From: Escherichia phage HC12
Length of the DNA stretch: 39,342 nucleotides
Direction: 5' to 3' (one strand)
Sequence record: OL362275.1
The translations under genes and the position numbers were made by a program. Position 1 is the stretch's first letter; each line of letters starts with the position of its first letter. Of the stretch, positions 6,168 to 38,650 are shown in pieces. The notes beneath the pieces were generated by a model, which was not told where the DNA came from, made no database searches, and worked only from the letters and a program-made list of their open reading frames with translations.

Positions 6168-6190
6168 CCTAAACTATCACTATAGGATTA
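6168..6190 (+). promoter_or_regulatory. Phage RNA polymerase promoter (phi1.1-like)
   Basis: CCTAAACTATCACTATAGGATTA, promoter family member, +1 G at 6185. Confidence 0.7.
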
Positions 6191-6232
6191 GACTCAAGGT
6201 CATGACTCAAAGTCGTGGCCTTCATGATTAAC
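6188..6232 (+). promoter_or_regulatory. RNase III-type processing hairpin (R1.1-like)
   Basis: TTAGACTCAAGGTCATGACTCAAAGTCGTGGCCTTCATGATTAA. Same conserved element recurs at 13046 and 36348, at the positions of T7 sites R1.1, R4.7 and R18.5. Confidence 0.55.
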
Positions 6233-6263
6233 CCTAAATAAACACTACTGGAGATTTAACCGT

Positions 6264-6443
6264 ATGTATCAGAACACTATCAACTTCGAGCGCATCCGTG
6301 AACGTCAGCAGACTGAAGGTTACATCCCTAAGGGCCGCAAGCTAAACAAGACCAAGCGTGGCGGTGGTGTCAAGGGTGCTTTCCGTAACGCTGAAGGCAA
6401 AGACTCTATGGTCAACCAAGAGAAGTATTTCGTAGGAGCGTAA
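6264..6443 (+). CDS. 1.1: gp1.1-like small basic protein
   Basis: Hand-translated 59-aa ORF MYQNTINFERIRERQQTEGYIPKGRKLNKTKRGGGVKGAF...; contains GRKLNKTKR as in T7 gp1.1. Absent from the track (under 60 aa). Confidence 0.65.
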   Translation: MYQNTINFERIRERQQTEGYIPKGRKLNKTKRGGGVKGAFRNAEGKDSMVNQEKYFVGA

Positions 6444-6446
6444 GAC

Positions 6447-6698
6447 ATGAGCAGACGTTGGGTATTCGATGCGTCAACCAGCCAGTGGTCATCGTTAGGC
6501 CGGACACACCGCGAGCTGAGTGAGGCAGGACTTGAGGTCAGAATGGATGTCCTGCCGTGCTCCGGAAAGACTCTGGTCCTAATCATTGAAGCAGACGGTT
6601 GGAGGATTCTGGTATCCCGCGAATTTACCAAAGATGAAATCTTTAGCTGTGAGCAATGGTGCTTACAACAATTGAACGCTTATAGGAGCTGGAAATAA
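6447..6698 (+). CDS. 1.2: gp1.2-like protein (in T7 an inhibitor of host dGTP triphosphohydrolase)
   Basis: RBS AGGAG. 83 aa. Immediately precedes ligase as in T7. Sequence similarity to T7 gp1.2 is only loose; the call rests mainly on position. Confidence 0.6.
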   Translation: MSRRWVFDASTSQWSSLGRTHRELSEAGLEVRMDVLPCSGKTLVLIIEADGWRILVSREFTKDEIFSCEQWCLQQLNAYRSWK

Positions 6699-7771
6699 TG
6701 ACAACTATTAAAACTAACCCGCACCGCGCTGTAGATTACTCTGAGTCAGGAGTTACGAAAGCACTGGCAGCAGCCGGGTCGCTGGAAGCTGAAGTGAAGT
6801 ATGATGGTGTGCGGCTGAACCTCCCGGTCTTCCCTACTGGTGAGACACAATGGTTGAGCCGTGAGTCTAAACCTCTCCCAGCCCTTGAGTGGCTGTCAGT
6901 CCTTACCAACATCGACAACATCGTCAGGGACCAGCAAAAAGCTAGCGACTGGCGGTGGTTCCTGAAGCAGGCTGGCTACGAAGGCACTGGCCTGATGATT
7001 GACGGTGAGGTCATGGTAAAAGGAGTGGACTTCAATACGTCTTCAGGTCTAGTCCGTACCATGTGGTCAGACACTAAGAACTACGCTTGGAATGGCAACC
7101 CAGATGCTGACATCGACACCAAGAAGAAGCATAAGGTCCCTTTCCATCTGGCAACCGACTACATACGCGTGGTTGTCTACGGTATCGTGGACCTTAACGT
7201 CATCCTTGACCCGAAATCCGAAGGTCCTATTCATAGCGTCACACGCCTGAAGGCCGAAGCTATCGTCCCTCTCCTCCAGAAATACTTCCCGGAAATCGAC
7301 TGGGTTCTGTCTGAGTCACACACGGTCTATGACCTTGAGTCGCTCAACTCCCTGTACGAACAGAAGCGTCTGGAAGGACACGAGGGTCTGGTAGTCAAGG
7401 ACCCGCTTGGTAAATACAAGCGAGGCAAGAAGTCTGGCATGTGGAAAATGAAGCCTGAGGAGACCATCGACGGGACCGTGTGTGGCCTCGTGTGGGGGAC
7501 TCCGGGTAAGGCCAACGAAGGTAAGGTGATTGGCTTTGAGGTTCTGCTTGAGGATGGCATGGTGGTTAACGCCTGTGGTCTGACTGAAGAACAGAAGGAT
7601 GAGTTTACGGAAGCCTGTAACACTGATACATATATTCTCGGTGGAATCAATCCATACGAAGGCTGGCAGTGTGAAGTCCTCTTCATGGAGCGCTTCCCTG
7701 ATGGTTCCCTTCGTCACCCTAGCTTCAAGTGCTGGCGCGGGACGGAAGACAATCCAACCGTTAAGAGTTAA
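6698..7771 (+). CDS. 1.3: ATP-dependent DNA ligase
   Basis: 357 aa. Active-site KYDG (AEVKYDGVR), plus EGHEGLVVKDP and KRGKKSGMWKMKPE aligning with T7 ligase. Confidence 0.95.
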   Translation: MTTIKTNPHRAVDYSESGVTKALAAAGSLEAEVKYDGVRLNLPVFPTGETQWLSRESKPLPALEWLSVLTNIDNIVRDQQKASDWRWFLKQAGYEGTGLMIDGEVMVKGVDFNTSSGLVRTMWSDTKNYAWNGNPDADIDTKKKHKVPFHLATDYIRVVVYGIVDLNVILDPKSEGPIHSVTRLKAEAIVPLLQKYFPEIDWVLSESHTVYDLESLNSLYEQKRLEGHEGLVVKDPLGKYKRGKKSGMWKMKPEETIDGTVCGLVWGTPGKANEGKVIGFEVLLEDGMVVNACGLTEEQKDEFTEACNTDTYILGGINPYEGWQCEVLFMERFPDGSLRHPSFKCWRGTEDNPTVKS

Positions 7772-29631: not shown

Positions 29632-32600
29632 GGAACTCAAACCCCGGGAACCTCCGTAAGTCCAAAGACCAATGGGAAGGTGCTATAGGTGATGATGGCG
29701 AATTCGTTATCTTCGACAGTCCTGAATCTGGCGTCCGAGCCTTAGCGAAAAACCTTCAAAGCTACGGTCGCCAAGGTTATGACTCCATCGAGAAGATTAT
29801 CAACCGATGGGCACCTCCGAGCGAGAACGACACTAAGTCCTACATCGACTCAGTGGTGGCTGCGACTGGTATCCCTGCCACCCAGAGTCTCGACCTATCG
29901 GACCCTGACACCCTGTCTTCTCTGGCTCAAGCTATCAGCTTCCATGAGACAGGCTCCCGGTACGACCCTGAAGTCTATCAGAAGGGAGTCGCACGAGCAC
30001 TCAATGGCATTAGCCCAAAGACTCCACCAGTAAGCGCTAACGTATTTGACGCACTCACGGAAGGACTCAAGGCTAAACCTAAAGTAGCTCTGGGTGAGAA
30101 CCTTCCGACCGCTGCTGGTCTAAACATTGAGGGTCAAGCACCTGAATCTCCCAACGAATCGTTCGGTGAGATGTTCTATAAGTCTACTGGCGAGACCATG
30201 AAGGAACGAGAGGACCGCTCTACGTGGTTCGGTTTCGGTGAGGCTACAAAAGCTGAAGTGAAGAACTCTATGATCGGCGTGGCTATCCGCGCTGGTCAGA
30301 CCGAGGACTCACTGGATGTCATTGGCGATGTGTTCAACCCAACCCGATGGAACAACCATAAGTGGTCTCGTGAGGAGCTGGACCAGATTCGTAACGCTGG
30401 GGTTCTTCCTCAGTATTACGGAGTCATTACTGGTGGTTCTCCTCAGAACCTGACCGAGCTTATTAACTTGGCGCTTGAGAACCAGAAGTTGGATCAAGAG
30501 AAGGCCAAGGCTGGGACTGGTGCTCAGTTAGCCGCTGGTGTGATTGGCGCTGGTGTGGACCCTCTGACCTACGTCCCTATTGCTGGACAGGTTGGTAAGG
30601 GCGGTAAGCTGGTCAATAAGATGTTCACCGTGGCTGCTCAATCTGGAGCACTGGCTGGTGTGTCTGAGATGGCCCGTACCTCAGTGGCTGGTGGTGATGC
30701 TCATGTGGCTGAAGCTATCCTTGGTGGCGCTCTCTTCGGTGGTGGTATGACTGCTATCGCTGATGGACTAGGCAGAGCCTTAGGCCGAAACACTAATGAG
30801 TTTGCTGGTCCAGCTACCCGTCTGGAAGCTCGTGAGACAGCTCGCAACACTGATGGTCAGGACCTGTCTCGTCTACCTATTCAGGATGGTGAGCAGACAT
30901 TTAGTCATCAAGGAGTTAAGTTCGCTAACGTTCCAAACGAGCCGGGTAGTGTACGATTAGAAGATGGTTCAATCCTGATTGGTGAGAACCCTCTGAACCC
31001 TAAGACACGTAAGGTCTTTGACGAAGTGATTGAGCCTGAACGTGCCGCTGCGGGTGTGAACCTTGGTGGCCTGACTGAGATTGGCCTGAAGCTGCTTCGG
31101 TCTGAGAACCCTGAGATTCGTGGAGTAGCTGCTGACTTAGTGCGTTCACCGACTGGTATGCAGTCTGGGGCCTCAGGTAAAATCGGGACCACTGCGTCAG
31201 ACGTATTCGAGAGACTTCGTGCTGTGGACCATCGGTTCTACAACGACATCGACGAAGCGGTTACTGAGGCGCTCAAGGACCCATACTTCCAGACAGCATT
31301 CTGGCGAGACTCTGGCGCATTCCGTCAGGACATCTACCAGCGTGTGTCTATGGCTATTGAAGACGGAAGTGGGAACCTGAAGGCTGAACTGACTCCGGGA
31401 GAACTGAAAGTCTATGACCTGCTGAAGAACCAGTTTGACGCCAAGCGTGAGATGATGGAGAACCCGGCGATGTTTGGTCGTCCAGACGCTCAGTCTATCT
31501 TTCCGGGCAGCCGCTTCAAGGGAACCTACGTCCCGCATGTGTATAGCAACCAGATGAAGAAGCTGTACATCAAGGAGCTTGGGAGTCCAGAGGCGTTGCA
31601 GGAGGCCATCAAGAAGTCATGGTTGACCAGCTATGCGTCTCGACCTGAAGTCAAGAAACGCGTGGACGAGGCACTCTTAGAGGCTGACCCTACGTTGACT
31701 CCAGAAGGACTTGCGGCTGCGGTCGATAAGTACGCCAACGATAAGGCTTATGGTATCTCTCACACCGAGCAGTTCGAGCGTTCATCCGTAATGGAAGAGA
31801 ACATCAATGGTCTGGTAGGTCTGGAGAACAACAGCTTCCTTGAGGCTCGTAACCTGTTCGATAGCGATATGTCAATCGTCCTACCTAACGGTCAGACCTT
31901 CAGTGTCAACAACCTGCGTGAGTGGGACATGGACAAGATTGTCCCGGCCTACAACCGTCGAGTTAATGGCGATATTGCTATCATGGCTGGTACAGGCAAG
32001 ACCACGAAGGACATGAAGGACTTGGTTGAGACCCTGATGAACAAGGCTGGGGATGACGGTAAGTTGAAAGGTGAAGTATCTACCTTACGTGACACTTTGA
32101 AGATTCTAACTGGTCGTGCTCGACGTGATGGTGCTGATGATGCGGCCTTCGCTACCGTGATGCGCACAATGACAGACCTATCGTTCTTCGCTAAGAATGC
32201 CTACATGGGTGTTCAGAACTTAACGGAGATTGGTGGTATGCTGGCTCGTGGTAACGTTCGTGCAATGCTTCATGGAGTCCCAATTTTCCGTGACCTAGCC
32301 TTCCGTAACAAGAAGGTTGGGGCCTCAGAGATTAAGGACCTGCACAATGTTATCTTCGGTAAGGAACTGGATGACTCAATCCGTCCGTCTAAACAGGATG
32401 TCATTGACCGTCTGCGATCTTACAGTGACCTAGGTCGTGGTACAGCTACAGCTCTGGGGACTGCCAAGTATTACACTGGCGAACTTGCAGTACGCTCTCC
32501 GTTCACTAAAGTCCTCAACGGTACGACCAACTACCTGTTAGATGCTGGACGTCAGGGCTTCCTGTCTGACATCGTGGAGCATAGCCTGACTGGTAGTAAG

Positions 32601-33500
32601 CGTAAGTTCGATGACCGCTGGCTGAAGACCGCTGGTATCTCTGACGAGCAGTGGAAGGGCATTAAGTCCCTAATCCGTGAGTCAGTGACTCGTGGTCCAG
32701 ACGGGAAGTACACCATCAAGGATAAGAAGGCGTTCAGTCAGGACCCAAGGGCTATGGACCTCTGGCGTATGGGTGACACCATCGCTGATGAGACCCTGCT
32801 CCGTCCCCACAAGCTGAGCAACATGGACGCCAAGGCTTATGGTCCGATAGCGAAGACTGTCTTGCAGTTTAAGAACTTCGTTATCAAGTCTATCAACGGT
32901 CGAACCATGCGTACCTTCTACAATGCCACCAAGAACAACCGAGCTATGGACGCTGCGCTGTCAACGGTTATGTCTATGGGTCTGGCTGGAATGTACTACA
33001 TGGCTCAGGCGCACATAAAGGCTTACGCTATGCAGGACGGGCGTGACCAAGAGTATCTGAAGCAAGCCCTTAACCCAACAATGATTGGCTATGCGGCGCT
33101 GTCCCGTAGCTCCCACTTAGGTGGTCCTCTTGGGGTCGCCAACATTCTGGGTGGAATCGCTGGGTATGAGGACACTAAGATGCTCCGCTCGTCAATCCTT
33201 CCGCGCTCACCTACCGAGAAGACGGAGAAGCCAATCGCCTTTGGTGCTGCTTCCAGTGGTCCGGTAATGAATGTGGTCGGCAACTTCCTTGAGCAGGTCC
33301 CGGCTTTCGGCTATGCTGCTAACGTTGGTGCTACGGCTTACAACTTGGCGGGATACCTCAAGGCTGATACCCGTGTCAACGAGCGAGACTACATGACCGG
33401 GATGTATAACACGTTCCGTGAACTTGTACCGAATGACCCGATTACCCAGAAGTTGCTGCTTGGAACGTTTGAGGAGCAGGGCATCCACATCAAGGACTAA
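29613..33500 (+). CDS. 16: Internal virion protein D (ejection protein), N-terminal domain unlike the T7 transglycosylase domain
   Basis: 1295 aa. From about residue 230 colinear with T7 gp16 (TRWN..W..EEL..IRN, SPTGMQSGASGK, YGISHTEQFE, NSFLEARNLFDSD, FFAKNAYMG, DPTMIGYAALSRSS, KELVPNDP). N-terminal 130 aa (NSNPGNLRK...RWAPPSENDT) is different. Confidence 0.93.
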   Translation: MATRGVRNSNPGNLRKSKDQWEGAIGDDGEFVIFDSPESGVRALAKNLQSYGRQGYDSIEKIINRWAPPSENDTKSYIDSVVAATGIPATQSLDLSDPDTLSSLAQAISFHETGSRYDPEVYQKGVARALNGISPKTPPVSANVFDALTEGLKAKPKVALGENLPTAAGLNIEGQAPESPNESFGEMFYKSTGETMKEREDRSTWFGFGEATKAEVKNSMIGVAIRAGQTEDSLDVIGDVFNPTRWNNHKWSREELDQIRNAGVLPQYYGVITGGSPQNLTELINLALENQKLDQEKAKAGTGAQLAAGVIGAGVDPLTYVPIAGQVGKGGKLVNKMFTVAAQSGALAGVSEMARTSVAGGDAHVAEAILGGALFGGGMTAIADGLGRALGRNTNEFAGPATRLEARETARNTDGQDLSRLPIQDGEQTFSHQGVKFANVPNEPGSVRLEDGSILIGENPLNPKTRKVFDEVIEPERAAAGVNLGGLTEIGLKLLRSENPEIRGVAADLVRSPTGMQSGASGKIGTTASDVFERLRAVDHRFYNDIDEAVTEALKDPYFQTAFWRDSGAFRQDIYQRVSMAIEDGSGNLKAELTPGELKVYDLLKNQFDAKREMMENPAMFGRPDAQSIFPGSRFKGTYVPHVYSNQMKKLYIKELGSPEALQEAIKKSWLTSYASRPEVKKRVDEALLEADPTLTPEGLAAAVDKYANDKAYGISHTEQFERSSVMEENINGLVGLENNSFLEARNLFDSDMSIVLPNGQTFSVNNLREWDMDKIVPAYNRRVNGDIAIMAGTGKTTKDMKDLVETLMNKAGDDGKLKGEVSTLRDTLKILTGRARRDGADDAAFATVMRTMTDLSFFAKNAYMGVQNLTEIGGMLARGNVRAMLHGVPIFRDLAFRNKKVGASEIKDLHNVIFGKELDDSIRPSKQDVIDRLRSYSDLGRGTATALGTAKYYTGELAVRSPFTKVLNGTTNYLLDAGRQGFLSDIVEHSLTGSKRKFDDRWLKTAGISDEQWKGIKSLIRESVTRGPDGKYTIKDKKAFSQDPRAMDLWRMGDTIADETLLRPHKLSNMDAKAYGPIAKTVLQFKNFVIKSINGRTMRTFYNATKNNRAMDAALSTVMSMGLAGMYYMAQAHIKAYAMQDGRDQEYLKQALNPTMIGYAALSRSSHLGGPLGVANILGGIAGYEDTKMLRSSILPRSPTEKTEKPIAFGAASSGPVMNVVGNFLEQVPAFGYAANVGATAYNLAGYLKADTRVNERDYMTGMYNTFRELVPNDPITQKLLLGTFEEQGIHIKD

Positions 33501-33518
33501 ACTATCACTATAGGAAAC
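33496..33518 (+). promoter_or_regulatory. Phage RNA polymerase promoter (phi17-like)
   Basis: ACTAAACTATCACTATAGGAAAC, overlapping the gene 16 stop. Confidence 0.7.
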
Positions 33519-33564
33519 TGGAGGCGCTACCATAGGTCTCCGTTTAAATCACAAAGGAGGCATA

Positions 33565-35745
33565 ATGTCCACGATTACACAATTCCCTTCAGGAAACACT
33601 CAGTACAGGATAGAGTTCGACTACCTAGCCAGAACGTTTGTTGTTGTTACGCTGGTGAATAGCTCTAACCCTACCCTGAACCGTGTACTGGAAGTTGGTA
33701 GAGATTACCGATTCCTTAATCCAACGATGATTGAGATGTTGGCTGACCAATCAGGTTTCGACATCGTTCGTATTCACCGTCAGACTGGAACTGACTTAGT
33801 GGTAGACTTCAGGAATGGCTCAGTGTTGACGGCTAGTGACCTGACCAATTCAGAGCTTCAGGCTATCCATATTGCAGAAGAAGGTCGAGACCAAACGGTT
33901 GACTTAGCGAAGGAATATGCCGATGCTGCTGGTAGCTCTGCTGGCAACGCTAAGGATAGCGAGGACGAAGCACGACGAATGGCGGCGAGTATCAAGGAAT
34001 TTGGTAAAATTGGCTATATTACCCGTCGCTCCTTCGAGAAAGGCTTCAACGTTACAACATGGAACGAGGTCCTGCTATGGGAAGAGGATGGTGCTTATTA
34101 CCGCTGGGATGGTACGCTTCCAAAGAACGTTCCCGCTGGTTCAACTCCTGAATCATCTGGTGGTATTGGGCTGAGTGCGTGGGTTAGTGTTGGTGATGCG
34201 TCACTTAGAGCAAACCTGTCTGATAGTGATGGCGCTAAATACATAGGCAGTGGAGAAAGGACATTACTTGAGCACAACAATGATGTTTTGCACTCAAAAG
34301 ACTTCCCAACACTGCAGGCAGCTATAGATGCATCTTTGCAAAAAAATGATCTACTGGTGTCTCCTGGAAATTATACTGAAAAAGTTACTATTGGAAACGC
34401 GCAGTTAAAAGGTGTTGGCGGGGCCACGGTACTAAAAACTCCGGCAGACTTTACAAACACTGTTCAGGTTAATTTAGCTACACCTAATTGGCAATTCCGC
34501 CATAGTGGTGGTTTTGCTATAGATGGTTCCGGGACAACCGGGGCCGTAGGTATTAGTTTTGACCCGTCAGACCAATATTCCGGACGTCATAATTTTAGTG
34601 ATGTATACATCCACAACATCAACAAGGCCATTCAGAAGCCTTCCGGGAACATCGGCAATACTTGGAGAAATATTGGGATATCTACGTGTGATTGGGGGTA
34701 TTACGCGATTAGTGGCTCAGAGATGCATTGCGGGGCCGATACCCTCTACAATATCCACTTCGATGGCATCTCCACCTATGCAGTCTATCTAGACGGCACT
34801 GTCGATAATGGCGGGGTGGGCGCATGGTGGCTTAAAGACTCCATTATTGAGGCTTCCGGAGGTGGCGGGATATACTTAAAAAGTAAATCGGGCGACTGTC
34901 CTACATCTCCATGCGGGGTATCCAATATATGGATGGAAGCGATCGCAACATCACCGGCTGTTCAGGTAGACGGCGTGGCGCAAAAACCGCGAGTTCTCAA
35001 GTTGGTAGACACAGCGATATTCTTTGCTGAGTATTCTTATCTCAACAACATCGAGCTATCCAACTCCAACTTAGTAACTTATGGTTGCCGTTTTGACAAC
35101 GCTGATGGTAATCAGGATATTGTCGTGGATGCACAAAGTACCATTGTAGCCCATGACGTGTATTTAAACGGCAGTTCTGGAAAGGACGTTATTGTGGAGT
35201 CCGTCGCATCGCAATCTGCAACTATAGCTACCACAAACTTATCTCTGAGGGGCAACTTAACAAGAGGGAGAGTATTTAATACGCCGACAGGGAATAAATT
35301 AATGGCTATCACATTTGACTCAGGTAGCCATAAGTTTTCTGGCAGCGGCACCGTTAACGGTTCGACTGTATCTGACGGACTTCACGCCGCTACATGTACC
35401 GAATTTTCATTCCCCGGAGCCGGTTTATATGAAATGGTAGCGACAAGAACAACCATTACATCCGGTAGATGGTACGTGTGGGGAGTTAACTCACGCCTAC
35501 AATCTGGCTCGGCGGATATTAGTATAACGTCAGGTATTACCATGGGTAGTGTTTACACAAAGCCGGGGGAGTGGATTAGCACTTTCGGTGTAGGAAAGGC
35601 ATCTACCACTGGCACTGTAGCGCTATACGTTTCCACAGGAGGAGGTTCGGGAGCTACGGTCAGATTCAGTGACTTTTTCATCGCTGAGTTTACGACGCAA
35701 GCTCAGGCTTTAGCTTTCGCCAATTCAAGGATGTCGTTATCATAA
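33565..35745 (+). CDS. 17: Tail fibre / tailspike: conserved T7-type N-terminal adapter, divergent C-terminal receptor-binding domain
   Basis: N-terminal 150 aa (FDYLARTFVVVTL, DYRF, LVVDFRNGSVLTASDL, IHIAEEGRD) align with T7 gp17. Remainder unrelated to T7, Gly/Ser/Thr/Asn-rich with repetitive beta-strand-like segments. DNA becomes AT-rich from about 34200. Confidence 0.9.
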   Translation: MSTITQFPSGNTQYRIEFDYLARTFVVVTLVNSSNPTLNRVLEVGRDYRFLNPTMIEMLADQSGFDIVRIHRQTGTDLVVDFRNGSVLTASDLTNSELQAIHIAEEGRDQTVDLAKEYADAAGSSAGNAKDSEDEARRMAASIKEFGKIGYITRRSFEKGFNVTTWNEVLLWEEDGAYYRWDGTLPKNVPAGSTPESSGGIGLSAWVSVGDASLRANLSDSDGAKYIGSGERTLLEHNNDVLHSKDFPTLQAAIDASLQKNDLLVSPGNYTEKVTIGNAQLKGVGGATVLKTPADFTNTVQVNLATPNWQFRHSGGFAIDGSGTTGAVGISFDPSDQYSGRHNFSDVYIHNINKAIQKPSGNIGNTWRNIGISTCDWGYYAISGSEMHCGADTLYNIHFDGISTYAVYLDGTVDNGGVGAWWLKDSIIEASGGGGIYLKSKSGDCPTSPCGVSNIWMEAIATSPAVQVDGVAQKPRVLKLVDTAIFFAEYSYLNNIELSNSNLVTYGCRFDNADGNQDIVVDAQSTIVAHDVYLNGSSGKDVIVESVASQSATIATTNLSLRGNLTRGRVFNTPTGNKLMAITFDSGSHKFSGSGTVNGSTVSDGLHAATCTEFSFPGAGLYEMVATRTTITSGRWYVWGVNSRLQSGSADISITSGITMGSVYTKPGEWISTFGVGKASTTGTVALYVSTGGGSGATVRFSDFFIAEFTTQAQALAFANSRMSLS

Positions 35746-35889
35746 AAACAACCTCAGCCGAATCGGGTTATTTATCATCAGAACGGTATTGAATAATCGA
35801 AGGTTGTGGAGGTAGAGGATAACTACACGTTGACCAACGTATGATAACAACTTTGGGTCACGGACGACCCGCTTTAAACTGGAGGTTTT

Positions 35890-36084
35890 ATGATTGAGTT
35901 AGACTTCAAGAATGAGGTCCTCAAAGCCTCGCCTATCGTCGGGACCGCTGCGGCTGATGGTGCCAGTCGGTTCTTCTTTGGGCTAACGCTCAACGAATGG
36001 TTCTACGTCGCTGCTATCGCGTACACCGTGGTGCAGATTGGCGTCCTAATTTACAAGACGATTAAGAGCGGAGGTAAGACATGA
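35890..36084 (+). CDS. 17.5: Holin (class II)
   Basis: 64 aa, near-colinear with T7 gp17.5: LDFKNEVLKASPIVGTAAADGASRFFFGLTLNEWFYVAAIAYTVVQIG. Confidence 0.9.
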   Translation: MIELDFKNEVLKASPIVGTAAADGASRFFFGLTLNEWFYVAAIAYTVVQIGVLIYKTIKSGGKT

Positions 36085-36344
36085 CGCAGATGGACTTAGA
36101 GAAGTTCCTGTTAATGCTGGACACAGAACGTGCTAGACTAATGCTGCAAGACCTGCGGGATGACTCTAAGCGTTCGCCCCAGCTCTACAACGCCATTGAG
36201 AAACTGCTTGCTCGACACAACTTTGTGTTAAGCAAGGTGTCTGTGGACGAGAAGACGCTGGCGGATATGGAGGCCTTGAACGCAGAGTACGATAAGGTGC
36301 TTTCAGCTACTGAGGATAATGACACCGGGTATGGTGTTCAATAA
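36081..36344 (+). CDS. 18: Terminase small subunit
   Basis: 87 aa; FLLMLDTERARLMLQDLRDDSKRSPQLYNAIEKLLARH aligns with T7 gp18. Confidence 0.9.
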   Translation: MTQMDLEKFLLMLDTERARLMLQDLRDDSKRSPQLYNAIEKLLARHNFVLSKVSVDEKTLADMEALNAEYDKVLSATEDNDTGYGVQ

Positions 36345-36347
36345 GTG

Positions 36348-36390
36348 TTAGACTCAAGGTCATCGTCAGGTGGCCTTTATGGTTAACACT
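36348..36390 (+). promoter_or_regulatory. RNase III-type processing hairpin (R18.5-like)
   Basis: GTTAGACTCAAGGTCATCGTCAGGTGGCCTTTATGGTTAAC, third copy of the conserved element, at the position of T7 R18.5. Confidence 0.55.
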
Positions 36391-36440
36391 GACTAGTGGA
36401 GGCGACTCTACGTTAAATCTGATAAACCGGGAGGGCAACT

Positions 36441-36890
36441 ATGCTCGAATTTTTAAAGAGAGCGGCTCCGTGGTTACTTGCAGCAGTGATGTTTGCTGGT
36501 GGCTACCACACCGCTAACAATAAGTGGGAGGCTAAGGTCAATGCAGAATACACCTCGAATCTTAAGGCATCGGAAGATACAAGGCTTGCTGTCCAAGCTG
36601 AAGTCAACAAAGTGTCCAAACGGTTTCAGGACGAAATGTCCTCGCTGGAAGGCAGCACTGATAGGATTATTGCTGACCTTCAGTCTGACAATAAGCGGTT
36701 GCGCATCCGAGTCAAACCAACGAGTGGAACCACGCAAAGTGACGGTCGATGCTTCATTGATGGTTACGCCGAACTTGACGAACGAGATGCTAAACGTCTT
36801 ATCGCCATCGGAGTGAAAGGAGACAAGTGGATTAAGGCCCTTCAAGACACTGTGAGAGCCTTACAGCAAGAGAAGGAGGTGACGCATTGA
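36441..36890 (+). CDS. 18.5: Rz-like i-spanin
   Basis: 149 aa, N-terminal TM segment; MLEFL..., [53 protein letters not shown] align with T7 gp18.5. Confidence 0.9.
36541..36816 (+). CDS. 18.7: Rz1-like o-spanin lipoprotein embedded in the +1 frame of Rz
   Basis: Embedded +1-frame ORF with hydrophobic stretch [13 protein letters not shown] followed by lipobox ISGC. ATG 36541 has a GGAGG RBS but gives a 53-residue pre-Cys leader; true start uncertain. Confidence 0.5.
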   Translation: MQNTPRILRHRKIQGLLSKLKSTKCPNGFRTKCPRWKAALIGLLLTFSLTISGCASESNQRVEPRKVTVDASLMVTPNLTNEMLNVLSPSE

Positions 36891-38650
36891 GTAAAGACTT
36901 AGTGGCGCGTCAGGCGCTAATGACTGCACGTATGAAGTCAGACTTCGTGTTCTTCCTGTTCGTCCTGTGGAAAGCTCTGTCGCTCCCAGTCCCGACTCGC
37001 TGTCAGATTGACATGGCGAAGAAACTATCGGCTGGGGACAACAGGCGCTTCATCCTACAGGCGTTCCGTGGTATAGGGAAGTCCTTCATTACGTGTGCCT
37101 TCGTTGTCTGGAAGCTATGGAACAACCCAGACTTGAAGTTCATGATTGTGTCGGCCTCAAAGGAGCGAGCCGATGCTAACTCCATCTTCATCAAGCGAAT
37201 CATCGACCTCATGCCTCAGCTTCAGGAACTCAAACCTAAGCAGGGACAGCGAGATGCGGTTATTAGCTTCGACGTGGGACCTGCCAAGCCAGACCACTCA
37301 CCTTCGGTTAAGTCCGTTGGTATCACTGGTCAGTTGACTGGTAGTCGTGCTGACATCCTGATTGCCGATGACGTGGAGGTTCCGAACAACTCAGCGACTC
37401 AGGCTGCACGAGACCGTCTATCAGAGCTTGTGAAAGAGTTCGACGCTATCCTGAAGCCGGGAGGTACGATCATCTATCTGGGTACTCCTCAGAACGAGAT
37501 GACCCTGTACCGTGAGCTGGAAGGTCGTGGGTACACCACTACTATCTGGCCCGCTCGTTATCCACGCGACAGGAAGGACTGGCAGTCTTACGGCGACCGT
37601 CTGGCTCCTATGCTTCAGGAAGAGCTGGAAGAGGACCCTGAGTCCTTCTACTGGCGTCCGACTGATGAAGTACGCTTCGATGATACGGACCTGAAGGAAC
37701 GTGAGCTGTCCTACGGTAAAGCTGGCTTCGCTCTACAGTTCATGCTTAACCCGAACCTGAGTGATGCCGAGAAGTACCCTCTTAAGCTCCGTGACCTTAT
37801 CGTAGCCGACTTGGACCCAGCGTCCAGCCCAATGGTCTACCAATGGTTGCCGAACCCTCAGAACAAGCGTGAGGACGTTCCTAACGTTGGACTCATGGGT
37901 GACTCGTACCACACGTATCAGACTGTAGGTTCTGCCTTCAGCTCATACACCCAGAAGATTCTGGTCATTGACCCTAGTGGTCGTGGTAAGGATGAGACTG
38001 GTTATGCGGTACTGTACCAGCTCAACGGCTACATCTTCGCTATGGAAGTTGGTGGTATGCGTGGTGGGTATGAAGACTCTACGCTGGAAGCACTGGCTAA
38101 GATTGGCCGTAAGTGGAAGGTCAACGAATACGTCATTGAGGGTAACTTCGGTGATGGTATGTACCTTGAGCTATTCAAGCCTGTAGCGGCCCGTATACAT
38201 CCTGCTGCTGTAACTGAAGTGAAGAGTAAGGGTCAGAAAGAACTCCGCATCTGTGACGTTCTGGAGCCTATCATGGGGTCTCACCGACTTATCATCAACG
38301 CTGCTGCTATCGTCCAAGACTACCAGTCGGCCTCTGATAAGGATGGTGTTCGTAACCCTATCTACTCTCTCTTCTACCAGATGACACGTATCTCTCGTGA
38401 ACGTGGAGCCTTGGCACACGATGACCGACTTGATGCGCTGGCTATCGGTGTACAGTTCTTCGTTGAGTCTATGGCTAAGGATGCCAACAAAGGCGAACGT
38501 GAAGTCACTGAGGAGTGGCTGGAGGAACAGATGGAGAACCCACGAAAAGGCTTCGAGTCCATCCACACTGAGTTCTGGGACAATGGGGTCCGGGTAACTC
38601 ACGATACGGACGACGAGCTGGGACTAGGGTCATACGTTACGTTCCACTAG
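36887..38650 (+). CDS. 19: Terminase large subunit
   Basis: 587 aa, colinear with T7 gp19: [109 protein letters not shown] start with AAGGAGGT RBS. Confidence 0.97.

Follow-up and report, generated by a model that had tools for sequence, protein, structure and literature searches.

Gene 17 of Escherichia phage HC12 (sequence record OL362275.1; the window throughout is the whole stretch of 39,342 nucleotides (nt) that was analysed) encodes a tail fibre or tailspike of 726 amino acids (aa). We consider it highly probable that this protein is a modular tailspike, in which a conserved front end that docks to the tail is joined to a recombining, probably hydrolytic beta-helix module directed at the Escherichia coli O25b O-antigen. 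The module determines which E. coli strains the phage can attack, and the O-antigen of the ST131 clone, which is pandemic and multidrug-resistant, is O25b. The first ~213 residues, comprising a T7-type adaptor and a Tail_spike_N domain, dock the tailspike to the Kayfunavirus tail and are conserved across the genus. Residues 222–726 form a self-contained receptor-binding module, in which an N-terminal cap is followed by a right-handed parallel beta-helix and then by a C-terminal beta-sandwich. Recombination passes this module between unrelated phages whose hosts are E. coli of serogroup O25/O25b. Its most likely target is the O25b O-antigen, bound along the beta-helix and probably cleaved by an endoglycosidase activity, so that the phage could advance to the outer membrane. 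Its architecture, junctions, distribution and fold are direct results of the comparisons described below.

Junctions and spread of the module

The homology of gene 17 to its relatives changes partner within a few codons. DNA of Kayfunavirus IMEP24 aligns to the window at 93% identity up to position 34203 and resumes only from 35796, and other Kayfunaviruses share 93–97% DNA identity up to the same nucleotide. The Kagunavirus Golestan, a siphovirus, is 88% identical to the window over 34228–35747 and nowhere else in the stretches compared (31000–38000 of the window against 9.5 kb of Golestan). Protein comparison gives the same picture, in that identity to IMEP24 is 95–97% at residues 1–213 and drops to 37–44% at residues 226–726, a pattern that is reversed for Golestan. 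A mosaic break at about 34200 had been proposed in an earlier note made from the sequence alone, and the sharp break in homology at 34204–34227 falls almost exactly on that coordinate. The module opens with the linker DGAKxIGSG, which is common to all carriers, and ends at a spacer past the stop codon; a simple scan of 35746–35889 found neither a terminator nor a promoter at this right junction. Just upstream of the left junction, the segment encoding GGIGLSAWVSVGDASL (34159–34206) has up to 26 of 30 nt in common with the N4-like phage L007, although the anchor of L007 otherwise differs. By its position this segment corresponds to 'motif one', a sequence of 44 nt for which Pas et al. (2023; PMC10408124) suggested a role as a hotspot of recombination.

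The conserved front end is longer than was first supposed. The earlier note had held that only the N-terminal 150 residues resemble T7 gp17, and the T7 likeness is indeed confined to the N-terminus, where the Phage_T7_tail domain covers residues 10–115 and the T7 gp17 chains in the PDB (7boz, 8dsp) align to residues 6–116 only; the conserved part, however, extends to about residue 213, because a Tail_spike_N domain sits between the T7-like part and the swapped module. This second domain, of the CBA120 TSP1/G7C gp66 type, is 95% identical to that of IMEP24, and its matches in the PDB are the N-terminal regions of CBA120 TSP1, TSP3 and TSP4, which align to residues ~151–230. In the same PDB comparison the Kayfunavirus-type tailspike 9vvr is nearly identical at residues 1–225 and unrelated beyond. 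The gene 17 product has no T7-like shaft or C-terminal tip domain, its remainder consisting of Tail_spike_N and the beta-helix. The protein belongs to the T7 gp17 type by its adaptor only.

Beyond the Kayfunaviruses, homologues of residues 226–726 occur behind at least five other N-terminal anchors. Carriers include 661-aa Kagunavirus proteins with Tail_spike_N only, 644-aa proteins with the P22 head-binding domain PF09008, and others that are 696, 748 and 842 aa long. Genomic context places other copies in the backbones of an N4-like 69-kb phage and a 47-kb siphovirus. A P22-like prophage (L005), recognised by its gp7, gp20 and gp16 ejection proteins, antirepressor and integrase, lies within an E. 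coli chromosome, where it adjoins the yfdC/mlaA/fadL/fadIJ region of a draft assembly with a flank that is 100% identical to five listed E. coli strains; its copy of the module has 82% protein identity. No homologue of the module was found by blastn in 5,426 complete E. coli genomes. Against GenBank phages, tblastn found it in Kuravirus ES17 and myPSH1131 (64%), Kagunavirus fFiEco03 (65%), Gamaleyavirus Bp4 and PD38 (41%), Nouzillyvirus XT34 (41%) and the marine Matsuvirus pYD6-A (31%). Clustered at 50% identity, the matches to the module among 1.84 billion representative proteins number 295 at E≤0.001 (74 of them at E≤1e-30), and within library proteins of ~500–1000 aa the match begins at widely varying offsets. 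Furthermore, the guanine-plus-cytosine (GC) content of the module stays at ~46–48% in backbones of 50%, 52% and 42% GC, which favours a travelling module.

Exchange of the host-recognition module among unrelated phages is therefore firmly supported by these comparisons, because the same module occurs at 88% DNA identity, and on other anchors, in unrelated backbones; the horizontal acquisition suggested by the earlier note is upheld on the same ground. It is scarcely credible that, with no horizontal acquisition, diversifying selection drove rapid divergence of the C-terminal part in place and left the anchor conserved. Divergence within the family does occur, as the C-terminal part of IMEP24 is a distant homologue belonging to it (37–44% identity), yet in-place divergence is ruled out by the Golestan alignment, in which the siphovirus copy is 88% DNA-identical where the compared stretches otherwise share nothing, by carriers in other backbones with anchors of P22, N4 and Kuravirus type, and by an identity profile that changes in abrupt steps.

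Horizontal exchange seems also to have operated within the module. An identity profile of 34240–35745 against loci L003, L005, L007, L009 and L014 reads as a patchwork of shorter recombination tracts: nt 34240–34329 are 98% identical to fFiEco03 and only 75% to Golestan, while the core (34510–35120) is 90–98% identical to Golestan. The N4-like L007 is ~86–94% identical over 34420–34940, where ES17 is more variable (57–90%), and both drop to ~45% from ~35200. Among the P22-like and N4-like carriers, divergence is greatest in the C-terminal domain (48–65% identity vs 88% in the proximal part), which is not so in Golestan or IMEP24.

Two GenBank records with homologues deserve separate mention. 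MZ417522.1 (L010, 'UNVERIFIED: Mycolicibacterium phage J1'), 24.9 kb long and classified under Microviridae with Mycolicibacterium as its host, has a long tail gene with 71% identity to the module over 73% of the gene's length; mislabelling or contamination of the record is probable. In Gamaleyavirus Bp4 (L012, KJ135004.2) the homologue comprises two annotated open reading frames (ORFs) and the tblastn matches come in two pieces, a split that suggests a frameshift or a sequencing error.

Fold, receptor and reaction

An AlphaFold2 monomer model of residues 226–726, built with 40 homologues, has a mean predicted local distance difference test score (pLDDT) of 92.8 and a predicted template modelling (TM) score (pTM) of 0.88. 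It contains ~40 short beta-strands, a short helical cap and a terminal helix. Foldseek ranks tailspikes at the top (CBA120 TSP4, Klebsiella K2-2 TSP and Sf6) and matches the last ~115 residues to the beta-sandwiches of CBM22, CBM6 and CBM16, with TM scores of 0.54–0.63 normalised to the target. The model thus confirms, as a prediction, the right-handed beta-helix fold of a tailspike, and with it both the repeated short beta-strand segments and the beta-helical tailspike that the earlier note had read from the letters. The richness in Gly, Ser, Thr and Asn remarked on there is likewise real, these residues making up 38.0% of the module compared with 30.8% of the N-terminal part and 24.1% of the other proteins of the window.

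A family assignment for the module does not follow from this fold. Residues 226–726 match nothing in Pfam or NCBIfam, curated beta-helix families such as Pectate_lyase_3 and Beta_helix included, and phrog_27367 is the sole family match in Pfam, NCBIfam and PHROGs. Extending the sequence-level search for an enzyme family to the PDB with phmmer and hmmsearch added nothing. Within the beta-helix part of the module, five carboxylates (D425, E429, E458, D511 and D522) are invariant, and E489 and D514 nearly invariant, in alignments down to 31% identity. We infer from this conservation that the five are a candidate active site, lying in a putative sugar-binding or catalytic groove.

The receptor is suggested by the hosts of phages that carry closely similar modules. 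Modules with at least ~90% identity to the tailspikes of O25b-isolated phages were classed as O25/O25b-associated, and residues 226–726 of gene 17 fall into this class, with 98.6–99.2% protein identity to LM33_P1, 22664BS1, 101136BS1 and 101118UKE1 and 89.6–92.2% to the Kagunavirus copies. The Kayfunaviruses 22664BS1, 101136BS1 and 101118UKE1 and the Kagunavirus 22664BS2 were isolated on O25b-positive strains (PMC8614997), the Kagunaviruses phiEc3 and phiEc4 lyse mostly O25 strains (PMC8285336), and LM33_P1 is, according to the title of Dufour 2016, an ST131-O25b:H4 phage. These host-range associations from the literature make the O25b O-antigen the most likely receptor, and the expectation of a surface polysaccharide receptor, whether capsule or O-antigen, is probably correct. 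Of these two, the capsule (K antigen) of ST131 strains, with the module acting as a capsule depolymerase, is very unlikely to be the target: host association follows the O25/O25b serogroup in two independent studies (PMC8614997, PMC8285336), and K5 lyase is similar in fold alone (13% identity).

If the O25b O-antigen is indeed bound, its chemistry bears on the reaction. Lyases that act by beta-elimination need a uronic acid in their substrate. The O25B repeat unit, a pentasaccharide that is neutral and O-acetylated, consists of Glc, Rha, Rha2Ac and GlcNAc and lacks uronic acid (PMC8260533), and a hydrolase is for this reason more plausible than a lyase, an argument that holds only if O25b is the receptor. 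Our best guess, inferred from these features together, is that the module is an endoglycosidase acting on the O25b O-antigen.

The same repeat unit might allow a different reaction. In O25B, Rha bears roughly one O-acetyl group per repeat unit (PMC8260533), and a carbohydrate esterase could remove the 2-O-acetyl on rhamnose, a trait that separates O25b from O25a, in place of glycosidic cleavage. Hints of this kind are weak, consisting of a 'putative pectinesterase' BLAST match reported by Green et al. (PMC7885116; E=7e-3), a Foldseek match to the pectin methylesterase 2ntb (E=4.8e-4) and a match of profile A1 to the pectinesterase 8tne (E=0.23), and we regard an esterase as most improbable.

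A stronger competitor to the endoglycosidase is a tailspike that only binds, in which a glycan (the O25b O-antigen or some other) is recognised reversibly along the beta-helix and the carboxylates serve sugar binding. The module has no sequence match to any characterised enzyme family, and only glycan binding was detected for the tail fibre of ES17, its closest experimentally studied homologue (64% identical; PMC7885116). The best structural matches nevertheless include many proven tailspike hydrolases and lyases, and invariance of five carboxylates down to 31% identity is more typical of an active site, because a binding surface would have to vary with serotype. A purely binding role is thus possible, if on balance doubtful. 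It is less likely again, but conceivable, that the module, like its ES17 homologue, might also attach to mammalian heparan sulfate or to mucosal glycans, keeping the phage at epithelia, or, as a related possibility, that it represents an unclassified enzyme family, either glycosidase or O-acetyl esterase, as would fit a family with no Pfam model, no sequence relative among solved structures and 295 matching clusters.

Several observations weigh against an endoglycosidase specific for O25b. A few strains of O75 and O8 are lysed by the Kagunaviruses phiEc3 and phiEc4 as well (PMC8285336), and a GenBank record with a 98.7% identical gene gives K-12 MG1655 as host; K-12 strains make no O-antigen, according to the abstract of PMC10578602; the O25 specificity is itself a matter of host-range association. 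On the side of the reaction, we found no report of cleavage activity for the gene 17 protein or any close homologue, and the authors who purified the ES17 tail fibre detected heparan sulfate binding only. A profile of the receptor-binding domain alone retrieved nothing from the PDB even at E≤10, and since the fold matches stand at ~7–17% identity with no PDB profile match, the type of reaction is not readable from homology.

Gene 17 in its genome

Coordinates of gene 17 and its parts are collected in the table. The gene lies between that of internal virion protein gp16 on one side and the holin gene on the other, as judged from ORF order and the annotation of LM33_P1, and the holin, small terminase, Rz and large terminase genes next to it follow the T7-like order. 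Its DNA is 99.1–99.2% identical to the tail fibre genes of the Kayfunaviruses LM33_P1, HC13 and 22664BS1. With 98.3% identity to LM33_P1 over 31000–38000 and 99.1% over gene 17, the window represents an LM33_P1-type phage.

Features of gene 17 and its surroundings in the window (residue numbers refer to the gene 17 product)
Feature	Coordinates	Strand	Basis
Gene 17, tail fibre/tailspike, 726 aa	33565..35745	+	Single ORF
T7-type tail-attachment adaptor, residues 10–115	33592..33909	+	Pfam PF03906 Phage_T7_tail, 59.8 bits (cut-off 25.2)
Tail_spike_N, second adaptor domain, residues 154–211	34024..34197	+	Pfam PF18668, 70 bits (cut-off 25)
Segment encoding GGIGLSAWVSVGDASL, just upstream of left junction	34159..34206	+	DNA conserved with N4-like phage L007
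Left recombination junction, residues 214–221 (LRANLSDS)	34204..34227	+	Junction alignment; IMEP24 homology stops at 34203, Golestan starts at 34228
Exchangeable receptor-binding module, residues 222–726	34228..35745	+	88% DNA identity to Golestan tailspike
Predicted right-handed parallel beta-helix, ~residues 261–600	34345..35364	+	Secondary structure of model; boundaries approximate
Candidate sugar-binding/catalytic groove (D425, E429, E458, D511, D522)	34837..35130	+	Conservation in alignments
Predicted C-terminal beta-sandwich domain, residues 611–726	35395..35742	+	Strands and terminal helix in model; Foldseek
Right junction, 50-nt spacer past stop codon	35746..35795	+	Golestan homology stops at 35747, IMEP24 resumes at 35796

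Base composition does not mark the exchanged part. The earlier note had described the DNA as visibly AT-richer from about 34200, a claim that fails on calculation: GC content is 48.5% over 33565–34203 and 46.3% over 34204–35745 (z=0.94, p=0.35), no change point in GC within gene 17 reaches z=1, and GC at third codon positions (GC3) is equally low in both halves, at 0.448 in the anchor (33565–34227; z=−3.0) and 0.436 in the module (z=−5.0) where genome codon usage would lead one to expect ~0.54. That the GC3 of the conserved anchor is unusually low, though it lies outside the swapped module, is an observation in its own right. The small difference in GC between the halves is located at codon position 1 (0.548 in the anchor vs 0.473 in the module) and so reflects amino-acid composition. 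What the note picked up is a local trough of 42% at 34200–34499, which is followed by a return to 52% by 34700–34999. The AT-rich unit is in fact the whole of gene 17 with its flanks (33489–35913; 46.4% GC), which is significantly below gene 16 (52.6%, z=4.2) and the downstream genes (51.4%, z=−3.1). The stretch to which the note referred still ranks in the lowest 1.3% of same-length windows in GC, only the early left end of the genome being lower. With AT-richness the same in the conserved part, GC content and codon usage were rejected as markers of the swap. The most AT-rich tract of the whole window is the left-end early region (180–2575; 45.5% GC).

Minor differences and irregularities were seen around the gene in related records. 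In IMEP24 (L002) the gap after gene 17 is 373 nt (locus positions 6185–6557), compared with 144 nt in the window, and an additional small ORF between the small terminase and Rz genes (7069–7344) has no counterpart in the window. In OR594184.1 (vB_EcoM_SHAK9454) the features annotated under the tail-fibre match are the terminase large subunit, an Rz-like spanin and the terminase small subunit; annotation and sequence appear to be out of register in this record.

Relation to known tailspikes

The portable O25b-recognition module, with its junctions mapped to 34204–34227 and to just past the stop codon, could serve the retargeting of phages or tailocins and the making of detection reagents. The module belongs to a widespread family that has neither a Pfam model nor a solved structure.

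Solved beta-helix tailspike enzymes, namely CBA120 TSP2 (5w6p/6w4q), Sf6 (2vbk), HK620 (2vji) and P22, resemble the module at 8–14% identity, with no match at the sequence level. T7 gp17 is alike in its N-terminal tail-attachment domain (residues ~6–116) and in gene position, and has no similarity past about residue 116. Beyond that point T7 gp17 consists of a coiled-coil shaft and a small tip domain, and it is not known to have an enzymatic beta-helix.

The closest known system is Gp17 of LM33_P1 (Kayfunavirus LM33P1; LT594300/NC_031937), which has 99.1% DNA identity over the whole gene and the same neighbours, and is effectively the same protein; it differs by a few substitutions, and its record has 38,979 bases where the window has 39,342. 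The Kagunavirus tailspikes of Golestan, phiEc3/phiEc4, 22664BS2 and fEg-Eco06 share the module at 89.6–92.2% protein and 87–89% DNA identity and are associated with O25/O25b hosts, but carry it in siphovirus backbones on a different anchor (661 aa in all, with Tail_spike_N only and lacking the T7 adaptor) and with ~23 additional residues separating the anchor motif from the DGAK linker. More distant is the tail fibre protein of Kuravirus ES17 (ES17-TFP), a phage that also targets ST131, whose C-terminal 500 residues are 64% identical overall and 70–86% in the proximal helix; it differs in its length of 1021 aa, its Kuravirus anchor, a distal third that is only 40–54% identical, and heparan sulfate binding that has been shown by experiment.

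The module swap in gene 17 is already known, both in kind and in the instance of LM33_P1. The Golestan paper records 88% identity to the LM33_P1 tail fibre (PMC7203180), and Green et al. (PMC7885116) describe a domain common to ES17, myPSH1131/2311, Golestan and LM33_P1, the last of which targets ST131. Pas et al. (2023; PMC10408124) describe O-antigen-specific tailspike domains exchanged at conserved junction motifs among Kayfuna-, Kaguna-, Gamaleya-, Kutter-, Lederberg- and Uetakeviruses, in a paper that mentions O25 and LM33_P1 zero times. Because that study leaves out O25, the O25 module adds one more serogroup to the same pattern of exchange.

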